NCBI RefSeq assembly: GCF_003324675.1
Contig: NZ_CP030918.1
Coordinates: 1,500,001-1,532,000, forward strand
From: Paracoccus suum
GTDB lineage: Bacteria > Pseudomonadota > Alphaproteobacteria > Rhodobacterales > Rhodobacteraceae
DNA length: 32,000 bases
Direction of reading: 5' to 3'
The number at the start of each line of letters is the position of its first letter. The first letter of the stretch is position 1. A program made the position numbers and the translations under genes. The notes under the pieces were generated by a model. The model searched no databases, had not been told where the DNA came from, and saw only the letters and a list, made by a program, of their open reading frames with translations. Positions 18,507 to 32,000 of the stretch are shown piece after piece.

Positions 18507-18523
18507 CTTAAGGTCGGCTTAAG
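18507..18523 (+). promoter_or_regulatory. Tandem CTTAAG-N5-CTTAAG box (copy 1), a predicted response-regulator site upstream of dsbD
   Basis: GGCTTAAGGTC GGCTTAAGGTG GGCTT: an 11-bp periodic direct repeat (hexamers at 18507-12 and 18518-23, with a degenerate third unit). TAGCC follows 10 nt downstream (18534-38) and the dsbD ATG is at 18547. Confidence 0.6.
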
Positions 18524-18546: not shown

Positions 18547-20451
18547 ATGATGACAAGATTTTTTTCCCTATCCTTCGCGACGCTGTCGCTGCTGATTGTG
18601 GTCCTTGCCGCAGGCTGGGCGGGCGCCCAGACGCACAAGCCACCACTGCAACCAGAGGACGCCTTTGCGCTGAGGGTCAGCCAGGACGCCGACGGCGCGC
18701 TGAACCTCAACTGGGATATCGCGGACGGCTATTACCTTTACCGCAGTGAGTTGAAGGCCGAGGCCGGCGACGGGCAGGAGCTGTCGCTGTCGCTGCCCGA
18801 GGGCGAGACCTATGCCGACCCCTATTTGGGCGAAGGGCAGATTTACCGCCAGAATGTCAGTGCAATGCTGGATCATCCGGTCGACGGAATGACCCTGCAT
18901 TGGCAGGGCTGCCAGCAGGACGGCATCTGCTACGCGCCGCAAAAGGTCAGTCTGGGTGCCGACGGCAGCGTCCTGCCGGTCGCGAATCGGACCCCCGCGC
19001 AGGACGATGGCGGCGTGTCTGCAGGGTCGGGTTGGACCCCGCAGACAGGCATGGTCGACCAAGCAGAGGCTGGCAAAGTTGATGTGGGGCAGGTAGATGC
19101 GGGGGCCGGTGGGGCGGAAACTGCGCGGCGGGGGACAGGCACCGGCGTGATCCTCGCGCAGGACCAGGGCCTCGTCCAAGGCCTCGCCGCGCGCGGCGGC
19201 GGTGCGCTGGTCATCCTTGGCTTCCTTGGCTTTGGCCTGCTGCTGGCTTTCACGCCCTGCGTCTTTCCGATGTTTCCCATCGTCGCCGGGATGCTGGCCG
19301 GGCAGGGCGAGGCCCTGACCGCGCGGCGTGGTCTGGTGCTGACCGGCGCTTACGTTCTGGCGATGGCGGCGGCCTTTGGCCTTTTGGGCATCGCCGCGGC
19401 CTGGTCCGGCGCGAACCTTCAGATGGTGCTGCAATCGCCGGCCGCCATCGCCGTGATCGCCGTGCTGTTCGTTCTTCTGGCGCTGTCGATGTTCGGATTT
19501 TACGAACTGCAGATGCCCGAGGCGCTGCAGCGCCGGCTCGGTCGGGTCGCGGGCAAGCGTGGCTCGCTGGGCGGGGCGGCGGTGCTTGGCTTTACCTCGG
19601 CGTTGATCATCGGGCCTTGCGTCACCGCGCCACTGGCGGGGGCGCTGCTTTATATCGCGCAGACCGGCGACGTGGCGCTCGGCGCGGCGGCGCTGTTCGC
19701 GCTGGGGCTGGGGCAGGGCGTGCCCCTGCTGGTCATCGGTCTCTTCGGGCCGCGGATACTGCCGCGCAGCGGCGCTTGGATGGAGGGCGCCAAGCAGGTG
19801 TTCGGCGTCATCTTCCTCGGCTTTGCCATCTGGCTGGCGAGCCGCGTGCTGCCGGGACCCGCGACACTGGCGCTGTGGGCGGCGTTGCTGGTCGGGACCG
19901 CGGTCTTCCTCGGTGCGCTCGACCGGCTCGACAGCGGCGCGACGCGCGGGCGGCGGCTGGCAGCAGTGCTGGGGGTGCTGCTGCTCTTTACGGGCGTGGT
20001 GCAGGGCCTTGGTGCCGCCCTCGGGGCCGTCGACCCGCTGCGGCCGCTGGCGCCCTTGGCGGGCCGCGCGGCGCCAGCAACGGCAGGGGCTGAAGCGCAG
20101 TTCGCGCACGTCACCACCGGCGCGGGCCTCGAACAGGCGCTGGCCTCGGGAAGCGGCAAGCCTGCGCTGGTCTATGTCACTGCCGACTGGTGCGTGACGT
20201 GCCGCGCCATCGAGCGCGGGCCGCTGGCGGATCCCGCAGTCACCGCGGCCCTCAGCGGCTTGGACGCGATCAAGGTCGATGTCAGCGATTTCAACGCCGA
20301 GGCGCAGATGCTGATGAAGGATCTGGCCGCGGCGGGCCCGCCGACCATGATCTTTCTGGACGCGGCCCGGGCCGAGGCCGCGGGCAGCCGGCTGATTGGC
20401 ATGGTCGACAGCGGCGCGATGCTGTCCTCGATCGGCAAAGTCGGGTCGTGA
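18547..20451 (+). CDS. dsbD: Thiol:disulfide interchange / membrane electron transporter, DsbD/ScsB family
   Basis: 634 aa with a signal peptide, an N-terminal periplasmic domain with HWQGCQQDGICYAP, a TM core with CVFPMFPI and GPCVTAPL, and a C-terminal thioredoxin fold with DWCVTCR. Confidence 0.9.
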   Translation: MMTRFFSLSFATLSLLIVVLAAGWAGAQTHKPPLQPEDAFALRVSQDADGALNLNWDIADGYYLYRSELKAEAGDGQELSLSLPEGETYADPYLGEGQIYRQNVSAMLDHPVDGMTLHWQGCQQDGICYAPQKVSLGADGSVLPVANRTPAQDDGGVSAGSGWTPQTGMVDQAEAGKVDVGQVDAGAGGAETARRGTGTGVILAQDQGLVQGLAARGGGALVILGFLGFGLLLAFTPCVFPMFPIVAGMLAGQGEALTARRGLVLTGAYVLAMAAAFGLLGIAAAWSGANLQMVLQSPAAIAVIAVLFVLLALSMFGFYELQMPEALQRRLGRVAGKRGSLGGAAVLGFTSALIIGPCVTAPLAGALLYIAQTGDVALGAAALFALGLGQGVPLLVIGLFGPRILPRSGAWMEGAKQVFGVIFLGFAIWLASRVLPGPATLALWAALLVGTAVFLGALDRLDSGATRGRRLAAVLGVLLLFTGVVQGLGAALGAVDPLRPLAPLAGRAAPATAGAEAQFAHVTTGAGLEQALASGSGKPALVYVTADWCVTCRAIERGPLADPAVTAALSGLDAIKVDVSDFNAEAQMLMKDLAAAGPPTMIFLDAARAEAAGSRLIGMVDSGAMLSSIGKVGS

Positions 20452-21266
20452 ATGCCGTCTCGATAGGACCGCTGGTGTTTGACGGCGCGCGGTTCGCGGC
20501 GATCTTCGCGCTGCTGCTGTTCTTTGCCGTGGCGGAAATCGTCGCCCGGGGCCAGCGGGGGCAGGTCCTGCGCGGCGATCCCGCGCGCTGGACCTGGCTG
20601 GCCGCCATCGCCTGGATCATGGGCGCTCGCATTGGCTTTGTCGCCATGAACTGGGCCGAGTTTTCCCCCCATCCTTGGGACAGCGTCAAGTTGTGGCAGG
20701 GCGGCTTTCTGCCGGCCGGTGGCTGGGCAGCCGGCCTCGCAGTGTTTCTGCTGGCGATGCTGCGCGATGTGCGCGGCGCGCTCGCGCCGCTGGCCCTGGG
20801 CAGCGCCGCGGCACTGGTCACGCATCTGGCGATCCCGGTCGCGTTTCCCATGACCAAACCTGATTTGCCTCCGATGCAACTGATGGCTCTGGACGGCGCC
20901 CCGGTCCAGTTGACCGGGCGCGAGCGGTCCGTGGTGCTGAACCTCTGGGCGAGTTGGTGCCCGCCATGCCGGCGCGAGATGCCGATGATGACCGACCTCG
21001 CCGCGCGAACGCCGGGGGTGGACTTCATCTTCGCCAATCAAGGCGAGGGCGCGGACCAGATTGACGCATTCCTGCGCGGCGAGGGGCTGCCGCCAGCCGG
21101 AATGGTCCGCGATCCGCAGAGCGGGCTGATGGCTGCGCTTGAGGCGATTGGCCTGCCCTCGACGCTGGTTTTCGACGCCGGTGGCCGGCTGATCGGAGCA
21201 CACACCGGCGAAATTTCACGAGCGGCCCTGGGCCGCATGATCGCTGACGCAGCACCGCGAAGATGA
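20448..21266 (+). CDS. Membrane-anchored TlpA/ScsD-like thioredoxin with an Lgt-like N-terminal TM region
   Basis: The GTG at 20448 overlaps the dsbD stop (GTGA). The N-terminal ~150 aa are hydrophobic and include KLWQGGFLPAGGW, reminiscent of the Lgt WxGG motif. The C-terminal thioredoxin domain carries LNLWASWCPPCRREMP. The track ORF start (20190) lies inside dsbD and is rejected. Confidence 0.75.
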   Translation: MNAVSIGPLVFDGARFAAIFALLLFFAVAEIVARGQRGQVLRGDPARWTWLAAIAWIMGARIGFVAMNWAEFSPHPWDSVKLWQGGFLPAGGWAAGLAVFLLAMLRDVRGALAPLALGSAAALVTHLAIPVAFPMTKPDLPPMQLMALDGAPVQLTGRERSVVLNLWASWCPPCRREMPMMTDLAARTPGVDFIFANQGEGADQIDAFLRGEGLPPAGMVRDPQSGLMAALEAIGLPSTLVFDAGGRLIGAHTGEISRAALGRMIADAAPRR

Positions 21267-21303: not shown

Positions 21304-21945
21304 ATGAGCATAACCCGACGCGACATTCTGGCGGGCACCGTCGGCCTCGGTTTGGCCGGGATCGCCGGCGGGGCCTTCCTGCTCAGCATGGACCGGGGCG
21401 CGAGCAAGGCCGCCGCCCTCAGTGTCCAAGATGTCCTGCACGATCCCGACAATCCCGTCCTCGGAAACCCCAAGGGTGCGCTGACCATCGTCGAGTATTT
21501 CGACTACCAGTGCCCGTTCTGCAAACGCGGCCATTCGATGCTGACGCGCGTGGTCGACGAGGACGGCGATATCAGGCTGGTGATGAAGGACTGGCCGATC
21601 TTTGGCGCGCCCTCGGTTCGGGCCAGCCAACTGGTCCTCGGGGCATCCTCGACCGGGGAATATGAAAAGGCGCATTCGGCCCTCATGGCGACCGAGGCGA
21701 AACTGTCCGAGGGGCAGATCCGGCAGGTGCTACGCGATGGCGGTATCGACCCCGACGCCTCGCTGGCCGCCTATCGCGCGGATCGCGGAAAATGGGACGG
21801 CTTGCTGTCGCGCAATTCCGCCCAGGCGGGCGAGTTGGGTCTGCAAGGCACGCCGGCCTTCATCGTCGGCGCCAAGATCTATCCCGGTGCGCTGGACGAG
21901 ACCGGACTGCGGGCGATCATCGCCGATGCCCGCGCCGCCGCCTGA
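21304..21945 (+). CDS. Periplasmic DsbA-family thiol oxidoreductase (ScsC-like), Tat-type signal
   Basis: 213 aa with MSITRRDILAGTVGLGLAG (twin-arginine motif) and the active site FDYQCPFCKRGH. Confidence 0.85.
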   Translation: MSITRRDILAGTVGLGLAGIAGGAFLLSMDRGASKAAALSVQDVLHDPDNPVLGNPKGALTIVEYFDYQCPFCKRGHSMLTRVVDEDGDIRLVMKDWPIFGAPSVRASQLVLGASSTGEYEKAHSALMATEAKLSEGQIRQVLRDGGIDPDASLAAYRADRGKWDGLLSRNSAQAGELGLQGTPAFIVGAKIYPGALDETGLRAIIADARAAA

Positions 21946-21948
21946 GGT

Positions 21949-21965
21949 CTTAAGGCTGCCTTAAG
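21949..21965 (+). promoter_or_regulatory. Tandem CTTAAG-N5-CTTAAG box (copy 2), upstream of the second DsbA-like gene
   Basis: TCTTAAGGCTGCCTTAAGCC, with hexamers at 21949-54 and 21960-65. TAGCC follows exactly 10 nt downstream (21976-80), the same offset as copy 1. Confidence 0.55.
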
Positions 21966-22106
21966 CCGGCGCCCGTAGCCGTTTCGGGAAACGAGGCGAC
22001 CGACCAGCCGGGCCGCGCCTGCGCCCGCAGGTTGGCATCAGCCGAAAACACGTCAGGGCGGGGCAAGCCCCGCAAGCCCCACGCCATGAACCATGAAGGA
22101 AAAAAC

Positions 22107-22733
22107 ATGCATCGTCGAAATCTTGTTCTCGCGGGCGCCAGCCTGCTTGTGCTGCCGACCGTCGCCCTGCCCGCCGCTGCCGCTGCGGCCAGCAATCCGA
22201 TGCCGGCCGCCCTGCGCAAGGCGCTGGAGCGCGACCCGACCGCCCCGGTACTGGGCAATCCCAATGGCGATGTCACCCTGACCGAGTTCTTTGACTACAA
22301 CTGCCCGTTCTGCCGCAAGATGGTCGGGCCGATGCACAGCCTGATCGTCGAGGACAAGAACCTGCGCGTCGTGTTGCGCGAATGGCCGGTGTTCGGCGAG
22401 GATTCGGAATTCGCGGCGCGCGCCTCGCTGGCCTCGCTGCAGCAGGGCAAATACTGGCAATATCACACCGCGCTGTTCCGCACGAAGGGCCGCGTGACCG
22501 AGAAGGCCACGATGCAGGTGGCGCGCGACATCGGCCTCGATATCGCGCGCCTGGAGCGCGACATGGACAGCGAGCAGGTCGAGCGGCACATCACCTCAAG
22601 CCACATGCTCGGAGAGCACATGGGCCTTGTCGGCACGCCCAGCTTCATCGCAGGCGACGAGGGCGCCTTCGGGCAATACAGCCTCGACGAGTTGCGCGGC
22701 ATGGTGAAACGCGCCCGCGCGACCTTGGCCTGA
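22107..22733 (+). CDS. Second periplasmic DsbA-family thiol oxidoreductase
   Basis: The ATG at 22107 is preceded by GAAGGA (22095-22100). The product starts MHRRNLVLAGASLLVLPTVALPAAAAAA (signal) and has the active site FDYNCPFCRKM. The track start at 22032 is a TTG with no SD. Confidence 0.8.
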   Translation: MHRRNLVLAGASLLVLPTVALPAAAAAASNPMPAALRKALERDPTAPVLGNPNGDVTLTEFFDYNCPFCRKMVGPMHSLIVEDKNLRVVLREWPVFGEDSEFAARASLASLQQGKYWQYHTALFRTKGRVTEKATMQVARDIGLDIARLERDMDSEQVERHITSSHMLGEHMGLVGTPSFIAGDEGAFGQYSLDELRGMVKRARATLA

Positions 22734-22790: not shown

Positions 22791-24149
22791 CTAACCGGCG
22801 GGCAGGATCACATCGGCCTGCTCGCCGCCGCCTTGACGCGGCGACAGGCGCAACTCGCCGCCCATCGCCTGCACGGCGGCCGCCACTATCGAGAGGCCAA
22901 GCCCGCTGCCCCCGCCCGACGCGCTCGCCGCGCCGCGATAGAAGCGCTCGGTGACATGCGGGCGATCCGCCTCGGCGATGCCGGTCCCCCGGTCCAGCAC
23001 GCTGAAGCGCACCGCGTCGCCATCCTGGACAAGCCGCGCCTGCACCACCGCACCACGGGGCGAGGCGAGGATCGCGTTCTCGAGCAGATTGCGAAGCGCG
23101 GGCGCCAGCAGCGCCGCCTGCGTGGTGCGCCATTTCGCTTGACCGGTTTTCAGCCGCAACTCGACGCCGCGCGATTTCGCCAGCCCGGCCAGTTGGCCAG
23201 CCACGTCGGCAAGTACGCTCGCGCCGTCTTGCGCGGGGGCCTGTGCACTGTCGATGGTGTTCTCGGCCGCCGTCATGTCCAGCAGCTGGCGCACCATGCG
23301 GTCGGTGCGATCGACAGCCAGCGTGATCTGCGTCAGCGCCCGCTCGCGCGTCGCGGCATCGGGCGCAAGAGCGGCGATCTGGGCCTGCGTCTTCAGCCCG
23401 GCAAGCGGGGTCTTCAACTCGTGGGCGGCAAAGGCGGTGAAGCTGCGCTCGCGCTCGCGTAGCCCCTCGACGCGGCGGAAAAGGCCGTTCAGCGCCTCGG
23501 TCATCGGTCGCAGTTCGGCCGGACCGCGGGTCTGCGTCAGCGGGCTGAGGTCGGTCGCCGGACGGCGCGACAGCGCATGGGCGAGGCGGTCCAGCGGCTC
23601 CAGCCCGTGGCGCACGGCCAGCCAGATCATCCCCGCCAGCAGCGGCAGGATCAGGATCGCTGGCGCCAGCAGGCCGATGGCAACGCCCCGCACCAGCCTC
23701 TCGCGCACGCTGAGGGCGTCGCCGACCATGACGCGGACCCCCAGATCCTCATCGACATGGGTATAGACCCGCCACACCTCACCATCGATGGTGTTTTCGC
23801 TGAAGCCGGCCTGCGCCGACAATTGCCCCGAGGGCGCGCCGGCGGATTCGCTCTTCAGCTGGCCGTCAAAGCCCCAGACCTGACAGATCAGCTGGCGCGC
23901 GACGTCGTGCCGCCCAGTCTGTGACAGGGCCGGGACCTCGTCCACCAGCCGCGCGGCGTCGGGGCCGGCGATGCCGCCGTTGCGCTGGATCAGCGAAGCG
24001 ACCATCTGCGCCGATTCCTGCAAGCGCCGGTCCAGCACATGGCCGACCTCGCTGCGGGTGGAATGCTGGATCCAGGCGACGGCCGACAGCCAGATTGCCC
24101 CGGTGGCAAGCAGCAGGATGACAAACAGGCGCCCGCGGATCGACGTCAT
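22791..24149 (-). CDS. Sensor histidine kinase, QseC/PmrB-like
   Basis: 452 aa with two TM helices flanking a ~130-aa periplasmic domain, a HAMP region, the H-box FTAFAAHELKTPLAGL, the N-box LLENAILAS, and the G-boxes DRGTGI and GSGLGLSIV. The start overlaps the regulator stop (ATGA at 24146-24149). Confidence 0.9.
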   Translation of the reverse strand: MTSIRGRLFVILLLATGAIWLSAVAWIQHSTRSEVGHVLDRRLQESAQMVASLIQRNGGIAGPDAARLVDEVPALSQTGRHDVARQLICQVWGFDGQLKSESAGAPSGQLSAQAGFSENTIDGEVWRVYTHVDEDLGVRVMVGDALSVRERLVRGVAIGLLAPAILILPLLAGMIWLAVRHGLEPLDRLAHALSRRPATDLSPLTQTRGPAELRPMTEALNGLFRRVEGLRERERSFTAFAAHELKTPLAGLKTQAQIAALAPDAATRERALTQITLAVDRTDRMVRQLLDMTAAENTIDSAQAPAQDGASVLADVAGQLAGLAKSRGVELRLKTGQAKWRTTQAALLAPALRNLLENAILASPRGAVVQARLVQDGDAVRFSVLDRGTGIAEADRPHVTERFYRGAASASGGGSGLGLSIVAAAVQAMGGELRLSPRQGGGEQADVILPAG

Positions 24150-24823
24150 GGCGAGCCACCGTCGGCCGGGTTCAGCAGGCGGTAGCCCGCGCCGCGAACG
24201 GTCTGGATGAAGTCGCGGCCCAGCTTCGCGCGCAATTTGTGAACGTGAACCTCGACCGTGTTGCTCTCGACATCCTCCTGCCAGCCGTAAAGCCGCTCTT
24301 CCAGCTGCGCCTTGGACAGGATGCGGCCGGGATGTTCGGCCAGGGCGTGCAGGACGCTGAATTCCCGGCGCGAAAAGCTCAACTCACGCCCGCCGATGCG
24401 ACCGTTCTGCGTGGCGGGATCGAGGCTGAGGCCGTTCCATTCGATCACTGCCGTCGCCCGCCCCTCCTGACGGCGCAACATGGCGCGGATGCGGGCGGCA
24501 AGCTCGGTCAAATCGAACGGCTTGCCGAGGTAGTCATCCGCCCCCGCGTCGAGGCCCGAGACACGGTCGCGCACCTCGTCGCGGGCGGTCAACAGCAGGA
24601 CGGGAATCCGCGATCCCGCCGCGCGGAGTTCGTTCAGCAGATCGAGGCCCGAGCCGTCCGGGAGCATGACGTCCAGCACGACCCCGGCAAAGCCGCCCCC
24701 GAGGAGTGCCGCGCGCGCATCAGCCAGCGTTCCGGCGGTATCGGCGGTAAAGCCCGACAGGCGCAGCCCGACGCTCAATCCGTCCAGCAGCAGCGGGTCG
24801 TCCTCGATAATCAGCAAGCGCAT
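24146..24823 (-). CDS. OmpR-family response regulator, QseB/PmrA(BasR)-like
   Basis: 225 aa: MRLLIIEDDPLL...VLDVMLPDGSG...LTARD...KPF, with the winged-helix end NTVEVHVHKLRAKLGRDFIQTVRGAGYRL. This closely resembles BasR/QseB (NTLEVHIHNLRDKVG..IRTVRGFGYML). AGGAAA lies 7-8 nt upstream. Confidence 0.9.
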   Translation of the reverse strand: MRLLIIEDDPLLLDGLSVGLRLSGFTADTAGTLADARAALLGGGFAGVVLDVMLPDGSGLDLLNELRAAGSRIPVLLLTARDEVRDRVSGLDAGADDYLGKPFDLTELAARIRAMLRRQEGRATAVIEWNGLSLDPATQNGRIGGRELSFSRREFSVLHALAEHPGRILSKAQLEERLYGWQEDVESNTVEVHVHKLRAKLGRDFIQTVRGAGYRLLNPADGGSP

Positions 24824-24868
24824 GGGATGATTTCCTTGCCCGAGATGATCACAGTCTCGCCGCCCATG

Positions 24869-24885
24869 CTTAAGCGGGGCTTAAG
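24869..24885. promoter_or_regulatory. Tandem CTTAAG-N5-CTTAAG box (copy 3), in the divergent regulator/oxidase intergenic region
   Basis: GCTTAAGCGGGGCTTAAGC, with hexamers at 24869-74 and 24880-85. It lies 46 nt upstream of the response-regulator ATG (minus strand). On the plus strand it is followed by TAGCT at the same +10 offset (24896-900) and by a copy of the dsbD 5' end. Confidence 0.55.
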
Positions 24886-25028
24886 CTCGCGTCTCTAGCT
24901 GGTCGGGCGTGATGACAAGATTGTTCCGCCGCTGCTGCGTCGTTTTGTCGGTGGCGAAGGCCCGTGGCCCTCGGTAAACGCCTGATCCCGAGATTGTCCG
25001 AGGGGGCGGCTCGGGACGCAGGCCGGAC

Positions 25029-25045
25029 CTTAAGGCTCGCTTAAG
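25029..25045 (+). promoter_or_regulatory. Tandem CTTAAG-N5-CTTAAG box (copy 4), upstream of the oxidase operon
   Basis: CCTTAAGGCTCGCTTAAGG, with hexamers at 25029-34 and 25040-45. GATAAG follows 10 nt downstream (25056-61) as a -10-like element. It lies about 100 nt upstream of the ccoN-like start. Confidence 0.55.
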
Positions 25046-25147
25046 GTTTGCCGCCGATAAGCCGGCCGCTCGAGATTCGCGTGAATCCGGGCGGGCCGTT
25101 TCCGACCCGCCATGGCTCCGCCGGGACGCACAGAAGGACCGTCCGCA

Positions 25148-26698
25148 ATGTTGATTACCATGGGCCTGCTTCTGGCCCTCAGCTTCGTTGTTTCGCTGCT
25201 TGCCCTGACCTTCCTGATCTGGGCGATCGCGACGCGGCAGTTCGCGCTGGACCGCGCCCAGGCCAAGACGGTCTTCGGCAAGGAGGCAGCCGAGCCCGAT
25301 ACGGACGGCACGCATCTGTTCGACACCACCGGGATCGACCGCGTCTCGGCCCGGCCAGTGCGGCTACTGATCCTGGGCGCGATCTTCTGGCTGCTGCTGG
25401 CATCAGCCTTCGGAGTGATCGCCTCGCTCAAGCTGCACTGGCCGGACTGGCTGAACCAGGCCGCGCCCCTGACCTTTGGCCGGATGCGCGCGCTGCACCT
25501 GAACCTCGTGACCTACGGCTGGCTGTCGCAGATCGGCATCGCCTGCATGTACTGGATCCTGCCGCGCATCTTCCGCACCCAACTGCGCTCGCCACAACTG
25601 GCGGTGATCGGCTTCTGGCTGTGGAACATCGGCGTCACGCTGGGCGCCGTGACCTTCGCCTGGGGTTGGACCGATGGCGAGGAATGGCTGGAGTTCGCCT
25701 GGCAGTTTGACATGCTGCTGGTCCTCGCCGGGGTATTTTTCGTCGTGCCGCTGGTACGCACGGCGCGGGCGCGCGAGGTCGACCATATCTACGTCACCGG
25801 CTGGTATTTCCTGGCCGCAATGGTCTGGTTCCCCTGCCTTTTCTTCATCGCCAACTTCCCGGGCATTCACTACGGGGTCGAGGAGGCGACCGTGAACTGG
25901 TGGTTTGCCCACAACGTCCTCGGCCTCTGGCTGACGCCGCTGGGGGTCGGGACGGCCTATTATTTCATCCCCAAGATCATCGGCAAACCGATCTATTCCT
26001 ATTCACTGTCGTTGATCGGCTTCTGGGGGCTCGCGCTCTTTTACAGTCAGGTTGGCATCCACCACCTGATCGGCGGTCCGTTGCCGACCTGGGTGGTCAC
26101 GCTCTCGATCGTGCACTCGATGATGATGTTCATCCCGGTCATCGCGGTGGCGATCAACCAGCATGTGACGGTGGCGCGCAACACCTGGGCACTGCGGGAA
26201 TCGCTGCCGCTGCGCTTCATCGCCTTCGGAGCGGTGATGTACACGCTGGCTTCGTTCCAGGGCTCGATCGAGGCGCTGCGCTCGGTCAACACGATCACGC
26301 ACTTCACCCATTACACCGTCGGCCATGCCCATCTGGGGGCCTATGCCTTTGTCTCGATCGTCATGTTCGGCGCGGCCTACCACATCATGCCGCGCATGGT
26401 GGGGCGCGAGTTCGCCTATCCCGGCCTGATCCGCCTGCACTTCTGGTTGGTGGTGCTCGGCTTTGCGATCTACTTCTTCGCGCTGACCATCGGCGGCGTG
26501 CTGCAGGGCCTCGCGATGCTTGATGCGACCCGCAGTTTTGCGGAAAGCGTGATGGTAACGAAGCCGTATCTGGAAGCGCGGTCGGTCGGCGGCACGATGA
26601 TGGCGCTGGGCCATGTCGTCTTTGCCGCCAACATCATCGGCATCCTGCGCGCCCCGCGCCGTGCCCTCCAACCCCAAAGCAGCGTGCCGGCAGAATGA
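25148..26698 (+). CDS. ccoN: cbb3-type (C-family) heme-copper oxidase subunit I with an N-terminal CcoS/FixS-like fusion
   Basis: The ATG at 25148 has GAAGGA 9 nt upstream. The first ~50 aa, MLITMGLLLALSFVVSLLALTFLIWAIATRQFALDRAQ, resemble CcoS (..FxWAxxSGQFDD..). The rest carries CcoN hallmarks: RALHLN, NWWFAHNVLGLWLTP..YYFIPK, FYSQVGIHH (Tyr six residues before the HH CuB ligands) and HYTVGHAHLG. Confidence 0.85.
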   Translation: MLITMGLLLALSFVVSLLALTFLIWAIATRQFALDRAQAKTVFGKEAAEPDTDGTHLFDTTGIDRVSARPVRLLILGAIFWLLLASAFGVIASLKLHWPDWLNQAAPLTFGRMRALHLNLVTYGWLSQIGIACMYWILPRIFRTQLRSPQLAVIGFWLWNIGVTLGAVTFAWGWTDGEEWLEFAWQFDMLLVLAGVFFVVPLVRTARAREVDHIYVTGWYFLAAMVWFPCLFFIANFPGIHYGVEEATVNWWFAHNVLGLWLTPLGVGTAYYFIPKIIGKPIYSYSLSLIGFWGLALFYSQVGIHHLIGGPLPTWVVTLSIVHSMMMFIPVIAVAINQHVTVARNTWALRESLPLRFIAFGAVMYTLASFQGSIEALRSVNTITHFTHYTVGHAHLGAYAFVSIVMFGAAYHIMPRMVGREFAYPGLIRLHFWLVVLGFAIYFFALTIGGVLQGLAMLDATRSFAESVMVTKPYLEARSVGGTMMALGHVVFAANIIGILRAPRRALQPQSSVPAE

Positions 26699-27318
26699 AC
26701 CGCTATCTTCCCCTCGTGCTGATCTCGCTCGGGATCCTCGCATTTGCGACCCTGTTTCTGGTGATCGCGCCGGGCATCCAGATTGCCCAGCGCGCAGTCT
26801 CTGAAGGGCTGCGCCCCTATACCGAACAGGAGGCGCGCGGCCGCGCGCAATATGTCAGTCTTGGCTGCGTCTACTGCCACAGCCAGCAGCCCCGCTCGCC
26901 CGACCAGGCCCCGGACGGAGAACGCGGCTGGGGCCGTCCTGCCGTCGCGGGAGATTATGTCTTCGACCGTCCGCACCAGCTGGGGACGATGCGCACCGGC
27001 CCGGACCTGCTGAACGTCGGCGCGCGCCTGCCCTCGGCAAGCTGGCAGCTGACGCATCTCTATCAGCCCCGTGCAATCTTTCCGTGGTCGATCATGCCGG
27101 CCTATCCGTATCTGTTCGAGAAAAAGGCAAAGGCAGCCGAAGGCGACACCGTTGTTGTTCTGCCCAACGGCGTCGGCCCGGCGGATGGCGGCGTCATTGT
27201 CGCCCGTCCCGAGGCGCTGGATCTGGCTGCTTACCTGCTGTCGCTCGACCGGACCTATCCGGTGCCCGCAAACTCGCTCCGGGACGACGGTTTCGCCCGC
27301 CGGGGAGCAAGCTCATGA
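26695..27318 (+). CDS. ccoO: cbb3-type oxidase monoheme subunit II (CcoO/FixO-like)
   Basis: The start overlaps the ccoN stop (ATGA). There is an N-terminal TM anchor, then GRAQYVSLGCVYCHSQQPR (CxxCH), GTMRTGPDLLNVG and WSIMPAYPYLF, matching the CcoO pattern. Confidence 0.85.
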   Translation: MNRYLPLVLISLGILAFATLFLVIAPGIQIAQRAVSEGLRPYTEQEARGRAQYVSLGCVYCHSQQPRSPDQAPDGERGWGRPAVAGDYVFDRPHQLGTMRTGPDLLNVGARLPSASWQLTHLYQPRAIFPWSIMPAYPYLFEKKAKAAEGDTVVVLPNGVGPADGGVIVARPEALDLAAYLLSLDRTYPVPANSLRDDGFARRGASS

Positions 27319-28562
27319 ACCGGCCCGACAAGCAGCCCGTCAAATCCCGGCTTGCCGACGAGGGCTACGAGCCGTGGGAGAACAACAGGCGCATCCCGCT
27401 GCCGGTGATCTGGGTCGCCGTGGCGCTGGCCGTCTGGGGTACGGCAACGCTGCTTCGCGATAGCGGCAGCTACGCGGTCGCCCAGAACGAGCGCCAATCC
27501 GGCGAGACTGTGGCCGCCGAGGCGCCGGAGGGCGGCGAGGCGCTGTTCCTCGCCCGCTGCTCGACCTGTCACCAGCCCAACGGCGCCGGCGTCCGGCTGG
27601 CTGTTCCCCCCCTGCACGGGTCTGACTTTGCAAAGGCAGGCCCGGAGGTCGTCGCCCAGATCATGCTGCGCGGCATCGACGGCCCCATTCGGGTCTCGGG
27701 CTTTGCGTATGACGGGCGCATGCCAAGCTTTGCCGCGGCGCTGAACGATGGTGATATCGCGCAGATCGCATCTTTCGTTGCCAACCGCTTTGGCGGGACC
27801 GGGGCCGCGCTCGAGGCCGGGCAGGTGGCCACCCTGCGTGCCGCGCAGGCGAACAAGGGCAGCTGGCAAGGCGGCGCCGAACTGGCCGCGCTGGTCCCCG
27901 ATCTACCCACGCAGCCACCGATGCCGGCAGAGGCAAAGCCTGCGACCGATCCTGCCATCTCGGCCCTGGTCTTTGCCGGCAAGAGCGATGCCTGGTCCTG
28001 CGCCAGCTGTCACGGCGATCTGGGGCAGGGGACCGAGAACACGCCGCGCCTCGCCGGTCTCGCGCAGGGCTACATCGCCCGCCAGCTGCGCGATTTCCGC
28101 CAAGGCGAGCGCCATAACGAAAGCATGAATTCGGTCGCAAAAGCCCTGAACGATCATGAGATCCACGGGCTGGCCGCCTATTACGCCCGCCAGCGGGTCG
28201 CCTCTGCCGCGCAGCCCGCGCTTGGCGGCGATCTGGCGCGGGGCGAGCAGATCGCGCTGCAGGGCGATTGGAGCATCGGCGTTCCGGCCTGTTTCAGCTG
28301 CCATGGCCCGTCGGGCTTTGGCGTGGCACCCGATTTCCCGGCGCTGGCGGCGCAGCAGCCAGCCTACATCGCCAGCCAGCTCGCTGCCTGGGCGGGCGGT
28401 CATCGCAACAACTCGCCGCTTGGTCTGATGGACCGGATTTCCGAGGCGTTGCCCGAGGCTGACCGTCGCGCCGTGGCCGACTACCTCGCCTCGCTGCCGG
28501 CAGTTCCGGCGCCCGAACAGCGGGCCGAGGCAAAGATTGATGGGGGTAAGGATGAGCTCTGA
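27315..28562 (+). CDS. Membrane-anchored triheme cytochrome c: a CcoP-like monoheme domain plus a c4/TsdB-like diheme domain
   Basis: The ATG at 27315 overlaps the ccoO stop (ATGA); the track start at 27084 lies inside ccoO. There is a TM helix (IPLPVIWVAVALAVWGTATLL) and three CxxCH motifs: CSTCH, CASCH and CFSCH. The last two domains have the repeated ...PRLAGLAQGYIARQLRDFRQGER... / ...PALAAQQPAYIASQLAAWAGGHR... pattern of c4-type diheme cytochromes. Confidence 0.8.
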   Translation: MNRPDKQPVKSRLADEGYEPWENNRRIPLPVIWVAVALAVWGTATLLRDSGSYAVAQNERQSGETVAAEAPEGGEALFLARCSTCHQPNGAGVRLAVPPLHGSDFAKAGPEVVAQIMLRGIDGPIRVSGFAYDGRMPSFAAALNDGDIAQIASFVANRFGGTGAALEAGQVATLRAAQANKGSWQGGAELAALVPDLPTQPPMPAEAKPATDPAISALVFAGKSDAWSCASCHGDLGQGTENTPRLAGLAQGYIARQLRDFRQGERHNESMNSVAKALNDHEIHGLAAYYARQRVASAAQPALGGDLARGEQIALQGDWSIGVPACFSCHGPSGFGVAPDFPALAAQQPAYIASQLAAWAGGHRNNSPLGLMDRISEALPEADRRAVADYLASLPAVPAPEQRAEAKIDGGKDEL

Positions 28563-29598
28563 AAAACACGAGGACCCGGGCCAGGGCCGCAGCGTGAAGC
28601 GGCTGATCTATTCTGTCGGCGGGGGACTTGTTCTGGTGGCCATCGGCGCCCTGGCGCTCGAGTCGGATCTGCTGCCGACATGGATCAGCGGCCGCACGAC
28701 GGAGGCGCCGGCCGCCCAAAGCGCCTTCTTTCAGCCCCCCTCCGAGGATGAACTGCCTGAAGGCCCCTTTGGCGAGGCCGTCAAGCGTGGTCGCGATATC
28801 TTCATGAACACGTCCACCAATGCCGGGGAATACGTCGGCAACGGGCTGTCCTGCTCGAACTGCCACCTCGACGGCGGCCGCCAGCCGATGGCAGCGCCAA
28901 TGTGGGCGGCCTGGACGCGCTATCCGATGTATCGAAAGAAGAACAACCAGATCAATACGATGGAAGATCGGGTGATGGGTTGCTTCAGCTATTCGATGAA
29001 CGCCCAGCATTCGGTCTCGGGTGGCCCGCCGCCGCATGGCAGCGACATCTACCGCGATCTGGACAGCTATTTCTACTGGCTCGCCACCGGCGCGCCGACC
29101 AACGTCCCGATGGAGGGCAACGGCTTTGGCAAGGTCGCCAAGACCGAGGCCGGCTATTCCTCCGACCGCGGGGCCCAGGTCTTCTCGGCCAACTGCGCAG
29201 TCTGCCACGGCGAGGACGGGCAGGGCCAGACCGATGCCAACGGCCGGATCGTGTTCCCACCGCTGTGGGGACCGAACAGCTATAACTGGGGCGCGGGCAT
29301 GGCCAAGATCGACACCGCCGCCGCTTTCGTGCAGCACAACATGCCGCTCTCCCAGCCGGGCAAGTTGTCCGACCAGGAGGCCTGGGACGTCGCCGCATAT
29401 ATCGACAGTCACGAGCGGCCCAAGGATCCCCGCCAGGGCAAGGGCACGGTCGAGGAGAACCGCAAGAAGTCCCATGACGGCGACGCGACCTATTACGGCC
29501 AGGTGCTTAATGGCACCCTGATCGGCGTCGGCACGCCCGACCCGGCGCGGCCGGTGGGCGCGCCCGATGCCCCGGCCGGGGTCACGCCGCCGGAATGA
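28552..29598 (+). CDS. tsdA: TsdA-family diheme cytochrome c (thiosulfate dehydrogenase / tetrathionate reductase-like), membrane anchored
   Basis: Heme motifs are CSNCH and CAVCH. A conserved Cys lies in RVMGCFSYSMN, the position of the His/Cys-ligating Cys in TsdA. FPPLWGPNSYNWGAGMAKIDTAAAFVQHNMPLSQPGKLSDQEAWDVAAYI closely parallels Allochromatium TsdA (FPPLWGPRSFNTGAGM...FIKHKMPLG..LSDEEAWDVAGFV) as I recall it. There is an N-terminal TM segment (LIYSVGGGLVLVAIGALAL). Alternative starts exist at 28537 (TTG) and 28540 (ATG). Confidence 0.7.
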   Translation: MSSEKHEDPGQGRSVKRLIYSVGGGLVLVAIGALALESDLLPTWISGRTTEAPAAQSAFFQPPSEDELPEGPFGEAVKRGRDIFMNTSTNAGEYVGNGLSCSNCHLDGGRQPMAAPMWAAWTRYPMYRKKNNQINTMEDRVMGCFSYSMNAQHSVSGGPPPHGSDIYRDLDSYFYWLATGAPTNVPMEGNGFGKVAKTEAGYSSDRGAQVFSANCAVCHGEDGQGQTDANGRIVFPPLWGPNSYNWGAGMAKIDTAAAFVQHNMPLSQPGKLSDQEAWDVAAYIDSHERPKDPRQGKGTVEENRKKSHDGDATYYGQVLNGTLIGVGTPDPARPVGAPDAPAGVTPPE

Positions 29599-31766
29599 CC
29601 CGGCAGCTGTTCGGCATCGACGGGCTGGCCTGCGCCGGCTGCGCGCGCGGGCTGGAAAAGCGCCTGCAGTCGCTGCCCGGCGTGCGCGCCGCCGGGGTGC
29701 ATTACCTGACCGCCTCAGCGCTGGTCGACTGGGATGAAAACCAGGCCAGCCGCGCCGACCTTTCGGCTGCCGTGGCCAAAGCCGGCTATGTGATGGCGCC
29801 GCGGCACCGACCGGACGAGGTTTCCGCCGCGATGGGACGCGATCTGCACCGGCTGGGCATCCGCCTTGCCGTCGCCGTCTTTGCTGGCATGTGGTCGATG
29901 GTGCCGGCGCTGGTGATCTATTTCACGGCGCTGGGTCCCGATGTCGCCTTCTGGCTAGCCGTTGCCTCAGGCCTTTTCGCGCTGCCAGTCGTATTCTGGG
30001 CCGGTTCCGGCATCCTGTGGATGGCCTGGCGCTCGGTCCTATTGCGCGCGCCGGGGATGGACCTGCTGATCGGCCTCGGCGCGCTGTCAGCCTGTGCGGT
30101 CTCGGCCTGGTCGCTGGCGCAAGGCCGGTCCGAGGTCTGGTTCGATACCGCGACAATGCTGATCACGCTGCTGTTGTTCGGGCGGCTGGTCGATACCGCG
30201 ACCCGGCGCAGCGCGGTCGATGCCCTGCGCGCGATGGAGGACGCCTCGCCGGAAACCGCCTTGGTCGAAACCGATGCCGGCTGGCAGCCGCAACCCTGCG
30301 CCGATGTGGCCATCGGCAGGCGCATCGCAGTCGATGCCGGCGCGCCGGTCAGCATGGACGGGGTGGTCCTTTCCGGGGACAGCCAGATCAACCGCGCTGT
30401 CCTGACGGGCGAGACGGCGCTGGTTGCTGTCGGATCGGGGGACCGGGTCGAGGCAGGTGCCATCAACCTCGGCCGGCGCCTGATCCTGAGGGTCGAGCGC
30501 GCTTTCGGCGACCGCGAGATCGACCGCATGGGCGGGGCCATCGCGCTGGAAGTGGCGCGGCGCGGCACCCGCGCCTCAGCCTCCGACCATTGGGCGGCGC
30601 GTCTGTCCGTGGCGATCCCGGCGCTGGCCGCGATCACCGCGCTGGTATCCTTTGGCCTGGGACTCGGGGCCGAGGCCGCGCTGCTGCGCGGGCTGACCCT
30701 GCTGGTCGCGGCCTGTCCCTGCGCCTTGGCGATTGCCCTGCCACTGGCGCAGATGCGCGCCGCCCAGACCGCCGCTGCCCAGGGCATGCGCCTGCGCGAT
30801 CCCGACGCCTTCGGCGCGCTCGGCCATCTCGGCAGCATCGTCTTTGACAAGACCGGCACGTTGACCACCGGCCAGTTGCAGGTGGTCGAGCTACGCCCGG
30901 CCGAAGGGATCGATGCCGCCCAGCTGTTGCAACTCGCTGCACTGGCCGAGACCGGGATCAGCCACCCCATCGCCCGGGCGATCATCGCCGCGCATGGCTG
31001 CGAGGCTGGGGTGGGCGGGCGCCGCCTGCCGCGCGGCGCCGAGGCCGAGGACGACGCAGGGCGCGTGGTCGAAATCGGCGCTGCCGGTCAGGCCGATGCG
31101 CAGGGGCGCAGCTGGCTGGTCGTCCGCCGCGACGGGCGCGAGGTCGGCCGCATCGCGCTGGCAGACACGCTGCGGCCAGAGGCGGCCTCCGTTCTTGCAA
31201 CGCTGCGGGAACAGGGGATTGTCCTGCACATGGCAACTGGCGACAGCGCGCCCGCGGCGCTTGCCCTGGCAGACCGGCTGGGGCTTTCGGCCGGCTCTGT
31301 CTCGCATGACTGCACGCCCAGCCAAAAGGCGGCGCTGCTGGGAAGCCTGCCGCGACCCGTGGCCTTCGTGGGCGACGGGGTCAATGACGGACCCGCGCTC
31401 GCCGCCGCTGATTGCGGGATCTCGGTCGCGGATGCCCATTCGGCCGCGGTGCAGACGGCGGCGGTCGTGATAACCGCCGGCGGGCTGACCCATATCGCCG
31501 GGGCCATCACGCTGTCCCGCGGCACCCGGCGGATCGCGCATCAGAACCTGGCCCTGGCATTGATTTATAACGCGTTCATGTTGCCGGCCGCCGCTTTCGG
31601 GCTGATCGGTCCGGCGGTCGCGGCGGCGGCGATGCTGGCGAGTTCCGTCTCGGTCATCCTGAATAGCCAGAGGCTCGGCCGGCGCGCCGCCGGCGAGGAT
31701 CGGCCGGCCGCCCCCCGGGCCGGCTGGATTTCGGCCGGCGTGGCCGATAAATTCGAAACGCTTTGA
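29595..31766 (+). CDS. ccoI: P1B-type Cu-translocating ATPase (CcoI/FixI-like)
   Basis: The start overlaps the tsdA-like stop (ATGA). Motifs are the HMA motif GLACAGC, the TM CPC motif CPCALAIALP, DKTGTLT, SHP and GDGVNDGPAL. Assignment as CcoI rather than CopA rests on operon context only. Confidence 0.8.
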   Translation: MTRQLFGIDGLACAGCARGLEKRLQSLPGVRAAGVHYLTASALVDWDENQASRADLSAAVAKAGYVMAPRHRPDEVSAAMGRDLHRLGIRLAVAVFAGMWSMVPALVIYFTALGPDVAFWLAVASGLFALPVVFWAGSGILWMAWRSVLLRAPGMDLLIGLGALSACAVSAWSLAQGRSEVWFDTATMLITLLLFGRLVDTATRRSAVDALRAMEDASPETALVETDAGWQPQPCADVAIGRRIAVDAGAPVSMDGVVLSGDSQINRAVLTGETALVAVGSGDRVEAGAINLGRRLILRVERAFGDREIDRMGGAIALEVARRGTRASASDHWAARLSVAIPALAAITALVSFGLGLGAEAALLRGLTLLVAACPCALAIALPLAQMRAAQTAAAQGMRLRDPDAFGALGHLGSIVFDKTGTLTTGQLQVVELRPAEGIDAAQLLQLAALAETGISHPIARAIIAAHGCEAGVGGRRLPRGAEAEDDAGRVVEIGAAGQADAQGRSWLVVRRDGREVGRIALADTLRPEAASVLATLREQGIVLHMATGDSAPAALALADRLGLSAGSVSHDCTPSQKAALLGSLPRPVAFVGDGVNDGPALAAADCGISVADAHSAAVQTAAVVITAGGLTHIAGAITLSRGTRRIAHQNLALALIYNAFMLPAAAFGLIGPAVAAAAMLASSVSVILNSQRLGRRAAGEDRPAAPRAGWISAGVADKFETL

Positions 31767-31775
31767 GGGTTCGAG

Positions 31776-32000
31776 ATGCAACATGTCACTCGCAGAACGG
31801 TCACGTTTGCCTTGCTCGCGCTGCTGGCCGCGTGCAGCCAGACAGATCCAAAGTTCAAGACCTACAACGGCCCGCCGGTGACCGAGATCGTCGTCAACAA
31901 GGGCGAGCGCCGCATGTACCTGATGAGCGGCCAGACCGTCCTGAAGGCCTATGAGGTCGGGCTCGGCAACGAGCCGGTCGGCACCAAGCATTTCGATGCC
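31776..32000 (+). CDS. L,D-transpeptidase (YkuD-family) lipoprotein, 5' part only
   Basis: My own translation from the ATG at 31776 is MQHVTRRTVTFALLALLAACSQ (lipobox) ...VVNKGERRMYLMSGQTVLKAYEVGLGNEPVGTKHFDA, typical of the start of a YkuD domain. It stays open to the window end. Confidence 0.65.
   Translation, partial: MQHVTRRTVTFALLALLAACSQTDPKFKTYNGPPVTEIVVNKGERRMYLMSGQTVLKAYEVGLGNEPVGTKHFDA

Follow-up and report, generated by a model that had tools for sequence, protein, structure and literature searches.

The window considered here is a stretch of 32,000 nucleotides from Paracoccus suum (contig NZ_CP030918.1, assembly GCF_003324675.1, positions 1,500,001 to 1,532,000), which carries on its + strand, between positions 25,148 and 31,766, an operon encoding a cbb3-type terminal oxidase, c-type cytochromes and a copper ATPase. 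With a probability of roughly 0.6, this operon constitutes a self-contained respiratory module that would carry electrons from thiosulfate to oxygen, under the control of a two-component system resembling DsbRS of Pseudomonas aeruginosa. By homology its gene order is ccoSN-ccoO-(cyt c-tsdB)-tsdA-ATPase, a reading that follows from the identification of gene 4 as TsdA and of the last two haems of gene 3 as a TsdB domain. Judging from related loci, the arrangement is not peculiar to P. suum and corresponds to a conserved, mobile module present in hundreds of species. An earlier note on this DNA had proposed a second cbb3-type oxidase, specialised, under separate regulation and with an electron-input branch of its own, and the main parts of that proposal hold.

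Operon organisation

Five open reading frames were verified on the + strand, at 25148-26698, 26695-27318, 27315-28562, 28552-29598 and 29595-31766. Three junctions are start/stop ATGA overlaps (26695, 27315 and 29595), and genes 3 and 4 overlap by 11 nt (28552-28562), the ribosome-binding site GGGGGTAAGG preceding the ATG at 28552; coordinates and junction sequences agree with the earlier description of this compact layout. The start of ccoSN at 25148 is consistent with the N-termini of relatives, which are conserved, and with a GAAGGA Shine-Dalgarno sequence. Pfam models matching the operon include COX1 (275 bits), FixO (109 bits) and, in gene 5, E1-E2 ATPase, HMA and Hydrolase. No Pfam match to FixQ, FixP_N, FixG or FixH was found among the operon proteins and, since the genes overlap, there is no space for a CcoQ; CcoQ, a canonical CcoP, CcoG and CcoH are thus absent from the operon, as had been claimed.

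A thiosulfate dehydrogenase and its partner cytochrome

Gene 4 (28552-29598, + strand) encodes a dihaem protein that is, on the grounds of homology and ligand motifs, a genuine TsdA thiosulfate dehydrogenase, a sharper assignment than the 'TsdA-like' of the earlier note. It matches 5lo9_A, which we take to be the TsdBA fusion of Marichromatium purpuratum, with an E-value (E) of 3e-89, and TsdA of Allochromatium vinosum (4wq7_A) with E 3e-50; its identity to a characterised TsdA domain is about 55%, and it carries both the haem 1 Cys-ligand motif (RVMGCFSYSMN, of the pattern R-x3-C-F-x-x-S-M-N) and the Met of haem 2 (HNMPL). The Cys ligating haem 1 of TsdA is the catalytic residue (PMC4423706, PMC9237845), and 5LO9 is cited as a TsdBA fusion in the second of these papers.

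Gene 3 (27315-28562, + strand) encodes a membrane-anchored cytochrome composed of an anchor (FEPYE...IPLP...WG), a class I monohaem domain and a TsdB-like dihaem domain of the c4 type. Its three CxxCH motifs, against two in gene 4, bear out its description as a triheme cytochrome, with the last two haems belonging to the TsdB domain: residues 228-399 match the TsdB part of 5lo9_A (its residues 20-194) with E 6e-27 and cytochrome c4 with E 7e-26, and residues 60-179 form the monohaem domain, which matches c552-type domains. A c4-like dihaem domain encoded directly upstream of tsdA is what characterises a TsdB, and by homology the C-terminal half of gene 3 is one; the dedicated input branch postulated earlier corresponds to this TsdB/TsdA pair, which is a real one. 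The composition of the protein varies between lineages, with three haems in alphaproteobacteria, two in betaproteobacteria, and one plus two on split proteins in gammaproteobacteria.

Does this anchored cytochrome represent a modified CcoP? A CcoP would combine FixP_N with two Cytochrome_CBB3 haem domains, and what was found in gene 3 is three haems, two of them TsdB-like. Its single transmembrane helix (residues 27-47) is preceded by a motif, [FY][ED]P[YWF]E-x4-[IV]P[LWM]P...WG, that is conserved in every relative. No Pfam match to FixP_N was obtained in this anchor at E up to 10 (eight relatives), CcoP is not among the PDB profile matches of gene 3, and the comparison of the anchor with a true CcoP N-terminus reached an hhalign probability of 25%. 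The earlier statement that all four redox subunits are membrane anchored stands for the transmembrane segments of CcoO (residues 3-32) and gene 3, and is less secure for TsdA, whose hydrophobic segment (residues 17-42) is an anchor or possibly a signal peptide.

An ordinary pair of tsdB-like (about 450 aa) and tsdA (about 300 aa) genes often lies just upstream of the oxidase operon, for example in Stenotrophomonas maltophilia (locus L004, 131-2408), Roseixanthobacter (L091, 6693-8935) and Paracoccus versutus (L001, 1-381), so that two TsdA paralogues stand side by side in some genomes.

The oxidase: a CcoS-CcoN fusion and a short CcoO

Gene 1 (25148-26698, + strand) encodes the subunit I of a C-family haem-copper oxygen reductase, in the form of a CcoS-CcoN fusion. 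Compared with structures in the PDB, it matches the cbb3 subunit CcoN (3mk7_A) with E 6e-73, and nitric oxide reductases only with E of about 1e-3. The motifs NWWFAHN, a Tyr six residues ahead of IHH, and HYTVGHAH are present and align with H207, Y251, H257/H258 and H345/H347 of Pseudomonas stutzeri CcoN, whose numbering is used below. The window protein and 15 diverse relatives retain all ligands (H60, H207, H257, H258, H345, H347) and the cross-link Tyr Y251, and also the Ca-site residue E122 and the channel residues T215, Y223, S240 and Y317, in line with the earlier assignment to the oxygen reductases rather than to the nitric oxide reductases.

In the alignment with P. stutzeri CcoN, two substitutions are invariant in the family, H243 being replaced by Gly and E323 by Gln. 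The latter position is presumably where the Glu hydrogen-bonded to the proximal haem b3 His would stand. The unusually low haem b3 potential of cbb3 oxidases has been attributed to such a highly conserved Glu (PMC8398457). The Gln/Gly state is not unique to the family: Gln occupies the E323 position in 40 of the 50 ligand-complete sequences of the sampled alignment (16 family sequences counted in), and the state is common to the other Gln-bearing ligand-complete sequences. The protein reaches 282.6 bits against the NCBIfam equivalog TIGR00780 (trusted cut-off 583), and because of this shortfall the NCBI Prokaryotic Genome Annotation Pipeline gives this CcoN type the generic name 'cbb3-type cytochrome c oxidase subunit I', canonical CcoN receiving the equivalog name.

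The CcoS/FixS-like transmembrane segment occupies approximately residues 1-47 (25148-25290, + strand), and the first 45 residues or so are conserved across the family. PF03597 (FixS) is the best Pfam match for the N-termini of all eight family members compared, four of which exceed the cut-off (maximum 30.4 bits). The claim that CcoS is fused to CcoN is thus upheld by homology at the family level, where the fusion is real, and is weaker for the window copy taken by itself (19.5 bits, E 8e-4, gathering cut-off 23.1).

A comparison set of 137 full-length CcoN sequences, of which 121 are representatives of 50% clusters, also contains 87 sequences (within the protein set P0125-P0270, none of them in the window) that lack most haem and Cu ligands. 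These are 30-41% identical to the window CcoN over about 440 residues, adjoin its family in a rough neighbour-joining tree, and are covered by no NCBIfam model; they may represent a large ligand-less CcoN-like radiation.

Gene 2 (26695-27318, + strand) encodes a short monohaem CcoO with one transmembrane anchor. It matches FixO (PF02433) with 108.7 bits (cut-off 29.6) over residues 7-148 only, and shares 37-38% identity with canonical CcoO across residues 14-151; its C-terminal 60 residues or so are unlike canonical CcoO, and the protein scores below the cut-off of TIGR00781.

The copper ATPase

Gene 5 (29595-31766, + strand) encodes a P1B-1 (Cu+) P-type ATPase that has a single CxxC metal-binding domain at its N-terminus, scores above the cut-off of TIGR01525 (392 bits) and carries in its translation the Cu(I) signature motifs CPC, YN and MxxSS. 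The earlier note had taken it for CcoI, set in the same operon as the structural genes; a Cu(I) ATPase is indeed there, but its orthology to CcoI is unsupported and was rejected, the protein being no closer to a true CcoI (228 bits and 33% identity with that of the Thioclava ccoGHIS locus L087) than to Escherichia coli CopA (270 bits, 32%). Thioclava CcoI and E. coli CopA align with each other at 311 bits. Because it is equidistant from the two, the operon ATPase is best described, from these alignments, as a separate P1B-1 lineage, and 'CcoI' is a functional guess, with no statement of orthology. A tblastn search of the ATPase against plasmids returned too few annotated matches for classification. 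Copper supply to the oxidase fits, without proof, with a paralogous gene set of Marinobacter (described below) that keeps CcoSN, CcoO and the ATPase without Tsd genes, and with Thioclava, where a canonical CcoI is encoded elsewhere and the operon ATPase is missing.

A DsbRS-like system and its predicted binding sites

The genes upstream of the oxidase operon encode a two-component system and several thiol-disulfide exchange proteins. Divergent from the operon lie a DsbR-like response regulator of the OmpR family (24146-24823, - strand; Pfam Response_reg and Trans_reg_C) and a DsbS-like sensor histidine kinase (22791-24149, - strand; 2CSK_N, HisKA and HATPase_c). The kinase has a single Cys (Cys89, in the periplasmic loop), located 154 residues before the phospho-acceptor His243; in P. 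aeruginosa DsbS, Cys82 and His235 are 153 residues apart (bioRxiv 10.1101/2020.08.17.255257). Further upstream, on the + strand, are a DsbD-type thiol:disulfide electron transporter (18547-20451; DsbD_N, DsbD_TM and Thioredoxin_7), a TlpA/DsbE-like membrane thioredoxin (20448-21266; Redoxin and AhpC-TSA, with the layout of its P. versutus homologue), a first DsbA-like thioredoxin-fold protein (21304-21945; DSBA and Thioredoxin_4) and a second one (22032-22733; DSBA), the true start of which is probably a downstream ATG near 22086-22107. The TlpA-like gene probably starts at GTG 20448, overlapping the dsbD stop (GTGA, 20448-20451), and this in-frame overlap implies translational coupling among the dsb genes, of the kind present in the oxidase operon.

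The 32-kb window contains four copies of the exact 17-mer CTTAAG-N5-CTTAAG, against 0.01 expected. The boxes (+ strand coordinates) lie 24 bp ahead of the dsbD ATG at 18547 (18507-18523), before the second dsbA-like gene (21949-21965), 46 bp upstream of the codon at which the regulator starts (24869-24885), and about 100 bp upstream of the start of ccoSN (25029-25045). They have the form of the site TTAA-N7-TTAA, established by footprinting and chromatin immunoprecipitation sequencing in P. aeruginosa for DsbR, the regulator through which the copper-sensing DsbRS system activates dsbDEG (bioRxiv 10.1101/2020.08.17.255257). Promoter sites, a two-component system beside dsbD-type genes and a single periplasmic Cys are therefore all found at the sequence level, and the four boxes would delimit a small regulon comprising dsbD-tlpA-dsbA, the second dsbA, the two-component system itself and the oxidase operon. 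Upstream of the operon, no FNR-type box stands out above chance, in agreement with the earlier observation that CTTAAG tandem boxes are present instead of an FnrL-type box, and a scan of 24780-25200 for a sigma-70 promoter and a terminator found none. Control by a DsbRS-like copper/disulfide-stress system rather than by oxygen is what these sites appear to indicate.

The association extends to other genomes. Among the 78 related loci with enough upstream sequence, 45 show a TTAA-N7-TTAA box in the 350 bp preceding ccoSN (the background being about one per 11.8 kb); a box is present in 25 of the 31 loci with a two-component system within 10 kb, and 37 of 80 loci have Dsb genes no more than 10 kb away. 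A study on Halomonas reports, for nine genomes, that a QseB-like two-component system and DsbG/thioredoxin flank tsdBA (PMC9237845). Another example may be P. aeruginosa PAO1, in which dsbRS (PA2479/80) precedes PA2481 and PA2482, both of them cytochrome c genes (PMC9866376, PMC4320558); from the gene order given in the literature alone, these may be a candidate TsdA/TsdB pair and, if they are, the DsbRS-Tsd link would extend to this model organism.

At the other end of the operon, a gene for a YkuD-family L,D-transpeptidase lipoprotein starts at 31776 (31776-32000, + strand, extending beyond the window), 10 nt past the ATPase stop, and probably shares the oxidase operon transcript. The description of a five-gene operon stands for the overlapping genes, to which this sixth gene would then be added. 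In P. versutus, a YkuD gene (Pfam YkuD match) also comes after the ATPase, and a second one lies inside the dsb cluster.

Distribution, mobility and coexistence with canonical oxidases

A scan of one genome per species, whose counts are lower bounds, found this CcoN type encoded in at least 574 species genomes, and its database relatives amount to thousands of sequences, 59-90% identical, in alpha-, beta- and gammaproteobacteria. Gene order was followed in 80 sampled loci, the denominators for TsdA and the ATPase being the loci with enough sequence: ccoSN is followed by CcoO and a cytochrome c in 79 of 80 loci each, by TsdA in 73 of 75, and by the ATPase in 57 of 68, so that the order is kept across the sample.

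Some loci are near-identical across bacterial classes, and for this reason the module is considered, from sequence comparison, to be horizontally mobile as well as widely shared. The loci of Pseudomonas paraeruginosa ATCC 9027 and Pigmentiphaga kullae K24 (L082 and L083), the one a gamma- and the other a betaproteobacterium by genus, are 99.995% identical over 21.5 kb, which points to a very recent transfer or to contamination of one of the assemblies, and those of a Bradyrhizobiaceae metagenome-assembled genome and Shinella granuli have 97.5% shared identity. The P. versutus locus abuts Trb/VirB type IV secretion (conjugation) genes, and the DNA closest to the window, about 82% identical, is found in Paracoccus aminovorans and P. 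versutus, on large secondary replicons (plasmid records of 1.2 and 2.2 Mb) that are not annotated over this locus.

This operon can be an additional oxidase. In a single assembly, that of Thioclava sp. JE_KL1, this type is found on WBJS01000004 (L041) and a canonical locus, hemN-fnr-usp-ccoNOQP...ccoGHIS, on WBJS01000002 (L087); canonical CcoN is also present in many Paracoccus species. In Marinobacter, a shorter paralogous set lies about 8 kb upstream of the full operon (L055, 2404-7500; L079, 1846-7000), consisting of a CcoS-CcoN (54% identical), a CcoO and a P-type ATPase, with no Tsd genes.

Proposed function and alternative explanations

In the route that we propose, TsdA (gene 4) would convert two thiosulfate into tetrathionate at its His/Cys-ligated haem and pass the electrons to the TsdB-type dihaem domain of the anchored cytochrome (gene 3), whose monohaem domain and conserved anchor would replace the missing CcoP. 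From there, electrons would reach CcoO and then haem b and the haem b3-CuB centre of the C-family oxygen reductase (gene 1), which supposes that these proteins form a complex. Maturation helpers would be carried along, namely the CcoS-like segment within CcoN and the Cu(I)-exporting P1B ATPase, the probable supplier of CuB, and owing to these helpers the module would work in its host after horizontal transfer. The divergent DsbRS-like system would probably drive both the operon and dsbD-tlpA-dsbA, DsbR binding at the CTTAAG-N5-CTTAAG boxes, so that expression would be tied to periplasmic copper or thiol stress as the inducing signal, and not to FNR or oxygen.

Electron flow from TsdB to a cbb3 oxidase has been suggested earlier (PMC9237845), and SoxYZ and FCSD genes adjoin the operon in Alcaligenes. 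In Pusillimonas ginsengisoli SBSA, knockout of the only tsdA, which has a cytC gene ahead of it, abolished tetrathionate formation, in a study that mentions no oxidase (bioRxiv 10.1101/708438). The type strain of this species, KCTC 22046, carries the operon (L062), and its TsdA counted from an internal Met has 322 aa, against 321 aa reported for SBSA; the gene knocked out in SBSA was probably of the operon type, although an exact sequence match was not found. The TsdA orthologue of Alcaligenaceae is named 'thiosulfate dehydrogenase' by JGI.

Several observations weigh against the proposed thiosulfate-to-oxygen module. The anchor motif of gene 3 resembles the IEEYDNPLPxWW of CcoP, but homology to FixP_N could not be demonstrated, which makes the docking of this cytochrome onto CcoN/CcoO conjectural. 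The ATPase, being no nearer to CcoI than to CopA, could be a copper-efflux pump, and the catalytic properties of the oxidase may differ from those of canonical cbb3, since the Glu that hydrogen-bonds the haem b3 His is aligned with a Gln here. Among the related loci, 33 of 78 have no exact box, and many have no two-component system nearby. Finally, the proposal gives no reason for coupling a thiosulfate chain to a copper/Dsb regulon, or to genes for L,D-transpeptidases. The thiol reactivity of tetrathionate and thiosulfate-copper chemistry are possible connections, as is copper sensitivity, known both for cytochrome c maturation and for Cys-dependent envelope enzymes.

One alternative, a general second cbb3 isoenzyme whose cytochromes substitute for CcoP and are fed by bc1 or soluble cytochromes, with a TsdA homologue not used for thiosulfate, would account for the co-occurrence of canonical and variant loci in one genome, for the relatedness of the Cytochrome_CBB3-type domains of gene 3 to the haem domains of CcoP, and for the Marinobacter set without Tsd genes. 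It is nevertheless decidedly unlikely, given that the catalytic Cys-ligand and Arg motif is retained in gene 4, which has the above identity to a characterised TsdA domain, and that TsdA is linked to the oxidase genes more tightly than the ATPase is. That gene 1 might encode a degenerate, non-catalytic CcoN-like protein, or a nitric oxide reductase, is very improbable: many of its sequence neighbours in the 50% representative library do lack the metal ligands, its TIGR00780 score (283 bits) is far under the cut-off, and a Gln replaces the canonical Glu by the haem b3 ligand, but no family member departs from the six His ligands, the cross-link Tyr or the Ca-site Glu, structures of nitric oxide reductases are matched only marginally, and CcoO, CcoS and a Cu ATPase are co-conserved with it.

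Another explanation is defence against copper and envelope thiol stress. The ATPase would expel Cu(I), and the cytochromes and oxidase would form an electron sink for the oxidation of Cu(I), thiols or thiosulfate-Cu complexes in the periplasm. DsbD/TlpA/DsbA and the L,D-transpeptidase would work beside them, the benefit being protection rather than energy gain. The DsbR-type boxes preceding both the dsb genes and the oxidase operon, the frequency of nearby Dsb genes, the YkuD genes in the cluster, the lack of specific CcoI likeness in the ATPase, and the similar flanks of Halomonas tsdBA (PMC9237845) all agree with it. We consider it unlikely, as no cytochrome-based Cu(I) oxidase of such a kind is known, TsdA chemistry is specific to thiosulfate/tetrathionate in the members studied, and Dsb genes or boxes are missing from many loci. 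A bolder version of the thiosulfate-to-oxygen module, doubtful though somewhat easier to entertain, would assemble the proteins into a thiosulfate:O2 supercomplex within a DsbRS regulon, its main job being periplasmic sulfur/copper redox control and not energy conservation, with a CcoP-less, CcoS-fused, Gln-type oxidase of altered haem b3 spread on mobile elements. If this were true, the module might remove thiosulfate that would otherwise turn Cu(II) into toxic Cu(I), or supply tetrathionate for the oxidation of thiols, the co-induced DsbD/TlpA/DsbA and spare L,D-transpeptidases protecting Cys-dependent envelope enzymes.

Significance

No description of this operon was found in the literature searched. 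Each part belongs to a known family, and what none of the papers searched contains is their combination: a CcoS-CcoN fusion, no CcoP, CcoQ, CcoG or CcoH, a Gln-type site, a TsdBA input, an own Cu ATPase, DsbR-type control, and mobility. Many heterotrophs turn thiosulfate into tetrathionate, and the route from TsdA/TsdB to oxygen has so far only been guessed, with cbb3 as a proposed acceptor; the conserved operon offers a concrete and testable answer on this coupling for hundreds of species. A distinct cbb3 subtype with CcoS fused, without CcoP and CcoQ, and with a Gln in place of the Glu that tunes haem b3, also lends itself, as a natural experiment, to asking what sets cbb3 oxidases apart. 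Control by copper/disulfide stress instead of FNR, as predicted here, would join respiration, sulfur chemistry and envelope copper stress in an undescribed way, and the mobility of the operon suggests that entire respiratory branches pass between bacterial classes as a unit.

Comparison with known systems

Canonical cbb3 oxidases (P. stutzeri 3MK7, Rhodobacter capsulatus 6XKW, Thioclava L087) have in common with this one the fold of subunit I, the haem and CuB ligands, the helix VII Tyr, the K-channel residues T215/Y223/S240/Y317 and the Ca-site Glu, together with a monohaem CcoO partner, the requirement for a CcoS-type factor, and a Cu ATPase. The window subunit I is however only about 30-35% identical to theirs, under the TIGR00780/00781 cut-offs. 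In contrast to the canonical loci, the window operon has CcoS fused to CcoN and no CcoQ, CcoP (FixP_N), CcoG or CcoH; its CcoO is without the canonical C-terminal third, Gln and Gly stand at the E323 and H243 positions, and there is neither an FNR box nor a hemN-fnr neighbourhood. Anchored c-type cytochromes that feed a haem-copper oxidase without a diffusing carrier are known from caa3 oxidases and from the bc1-cbb3 supercomplex with anchored cytochrome cy (PMC7876108). In the module considered here, which is known from its genes alone, the tethered donor would be a substrate dehydrogenase, TsdA, and not bc1.

As in characterised TsdA and TsdB proteins (A. vinosum 4WQ7, M. purpuratum 5LO9), gene 4 combines both haem motifs with the Cys axial ligand motif and the Asn-Met-Pro motif of haem 2, and, as in tsdBA pairs, a TsdB-type dihaem domain (the C-terminal half of gene 3) is encoded directly upstream of tsdA. 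The window proteins differ in that both have N-terminal hydrophobic anchors, and the pair sits inside an oxidase operon instead of standing alone; within this family, TsdB has an added monohaem domain in alphaproteobacteria, stands without one in betaproteobacteria, and is divided over two genes in gammaproteobacteria. With the P. aeruginosa DsbRS-dsbDEG system, the window shares an OmpR-type regulator and a kinase that has one Cys in its periplasmic part, both next to dsbD-dsbE-dsbG-type genes, as well as TTAA-N7-TTAA promoter sites, including one at the promoter of the regulator itself; the difference lies in the predicted regulon, which here appears to take in a terminal oxidase/TsdBA operon.

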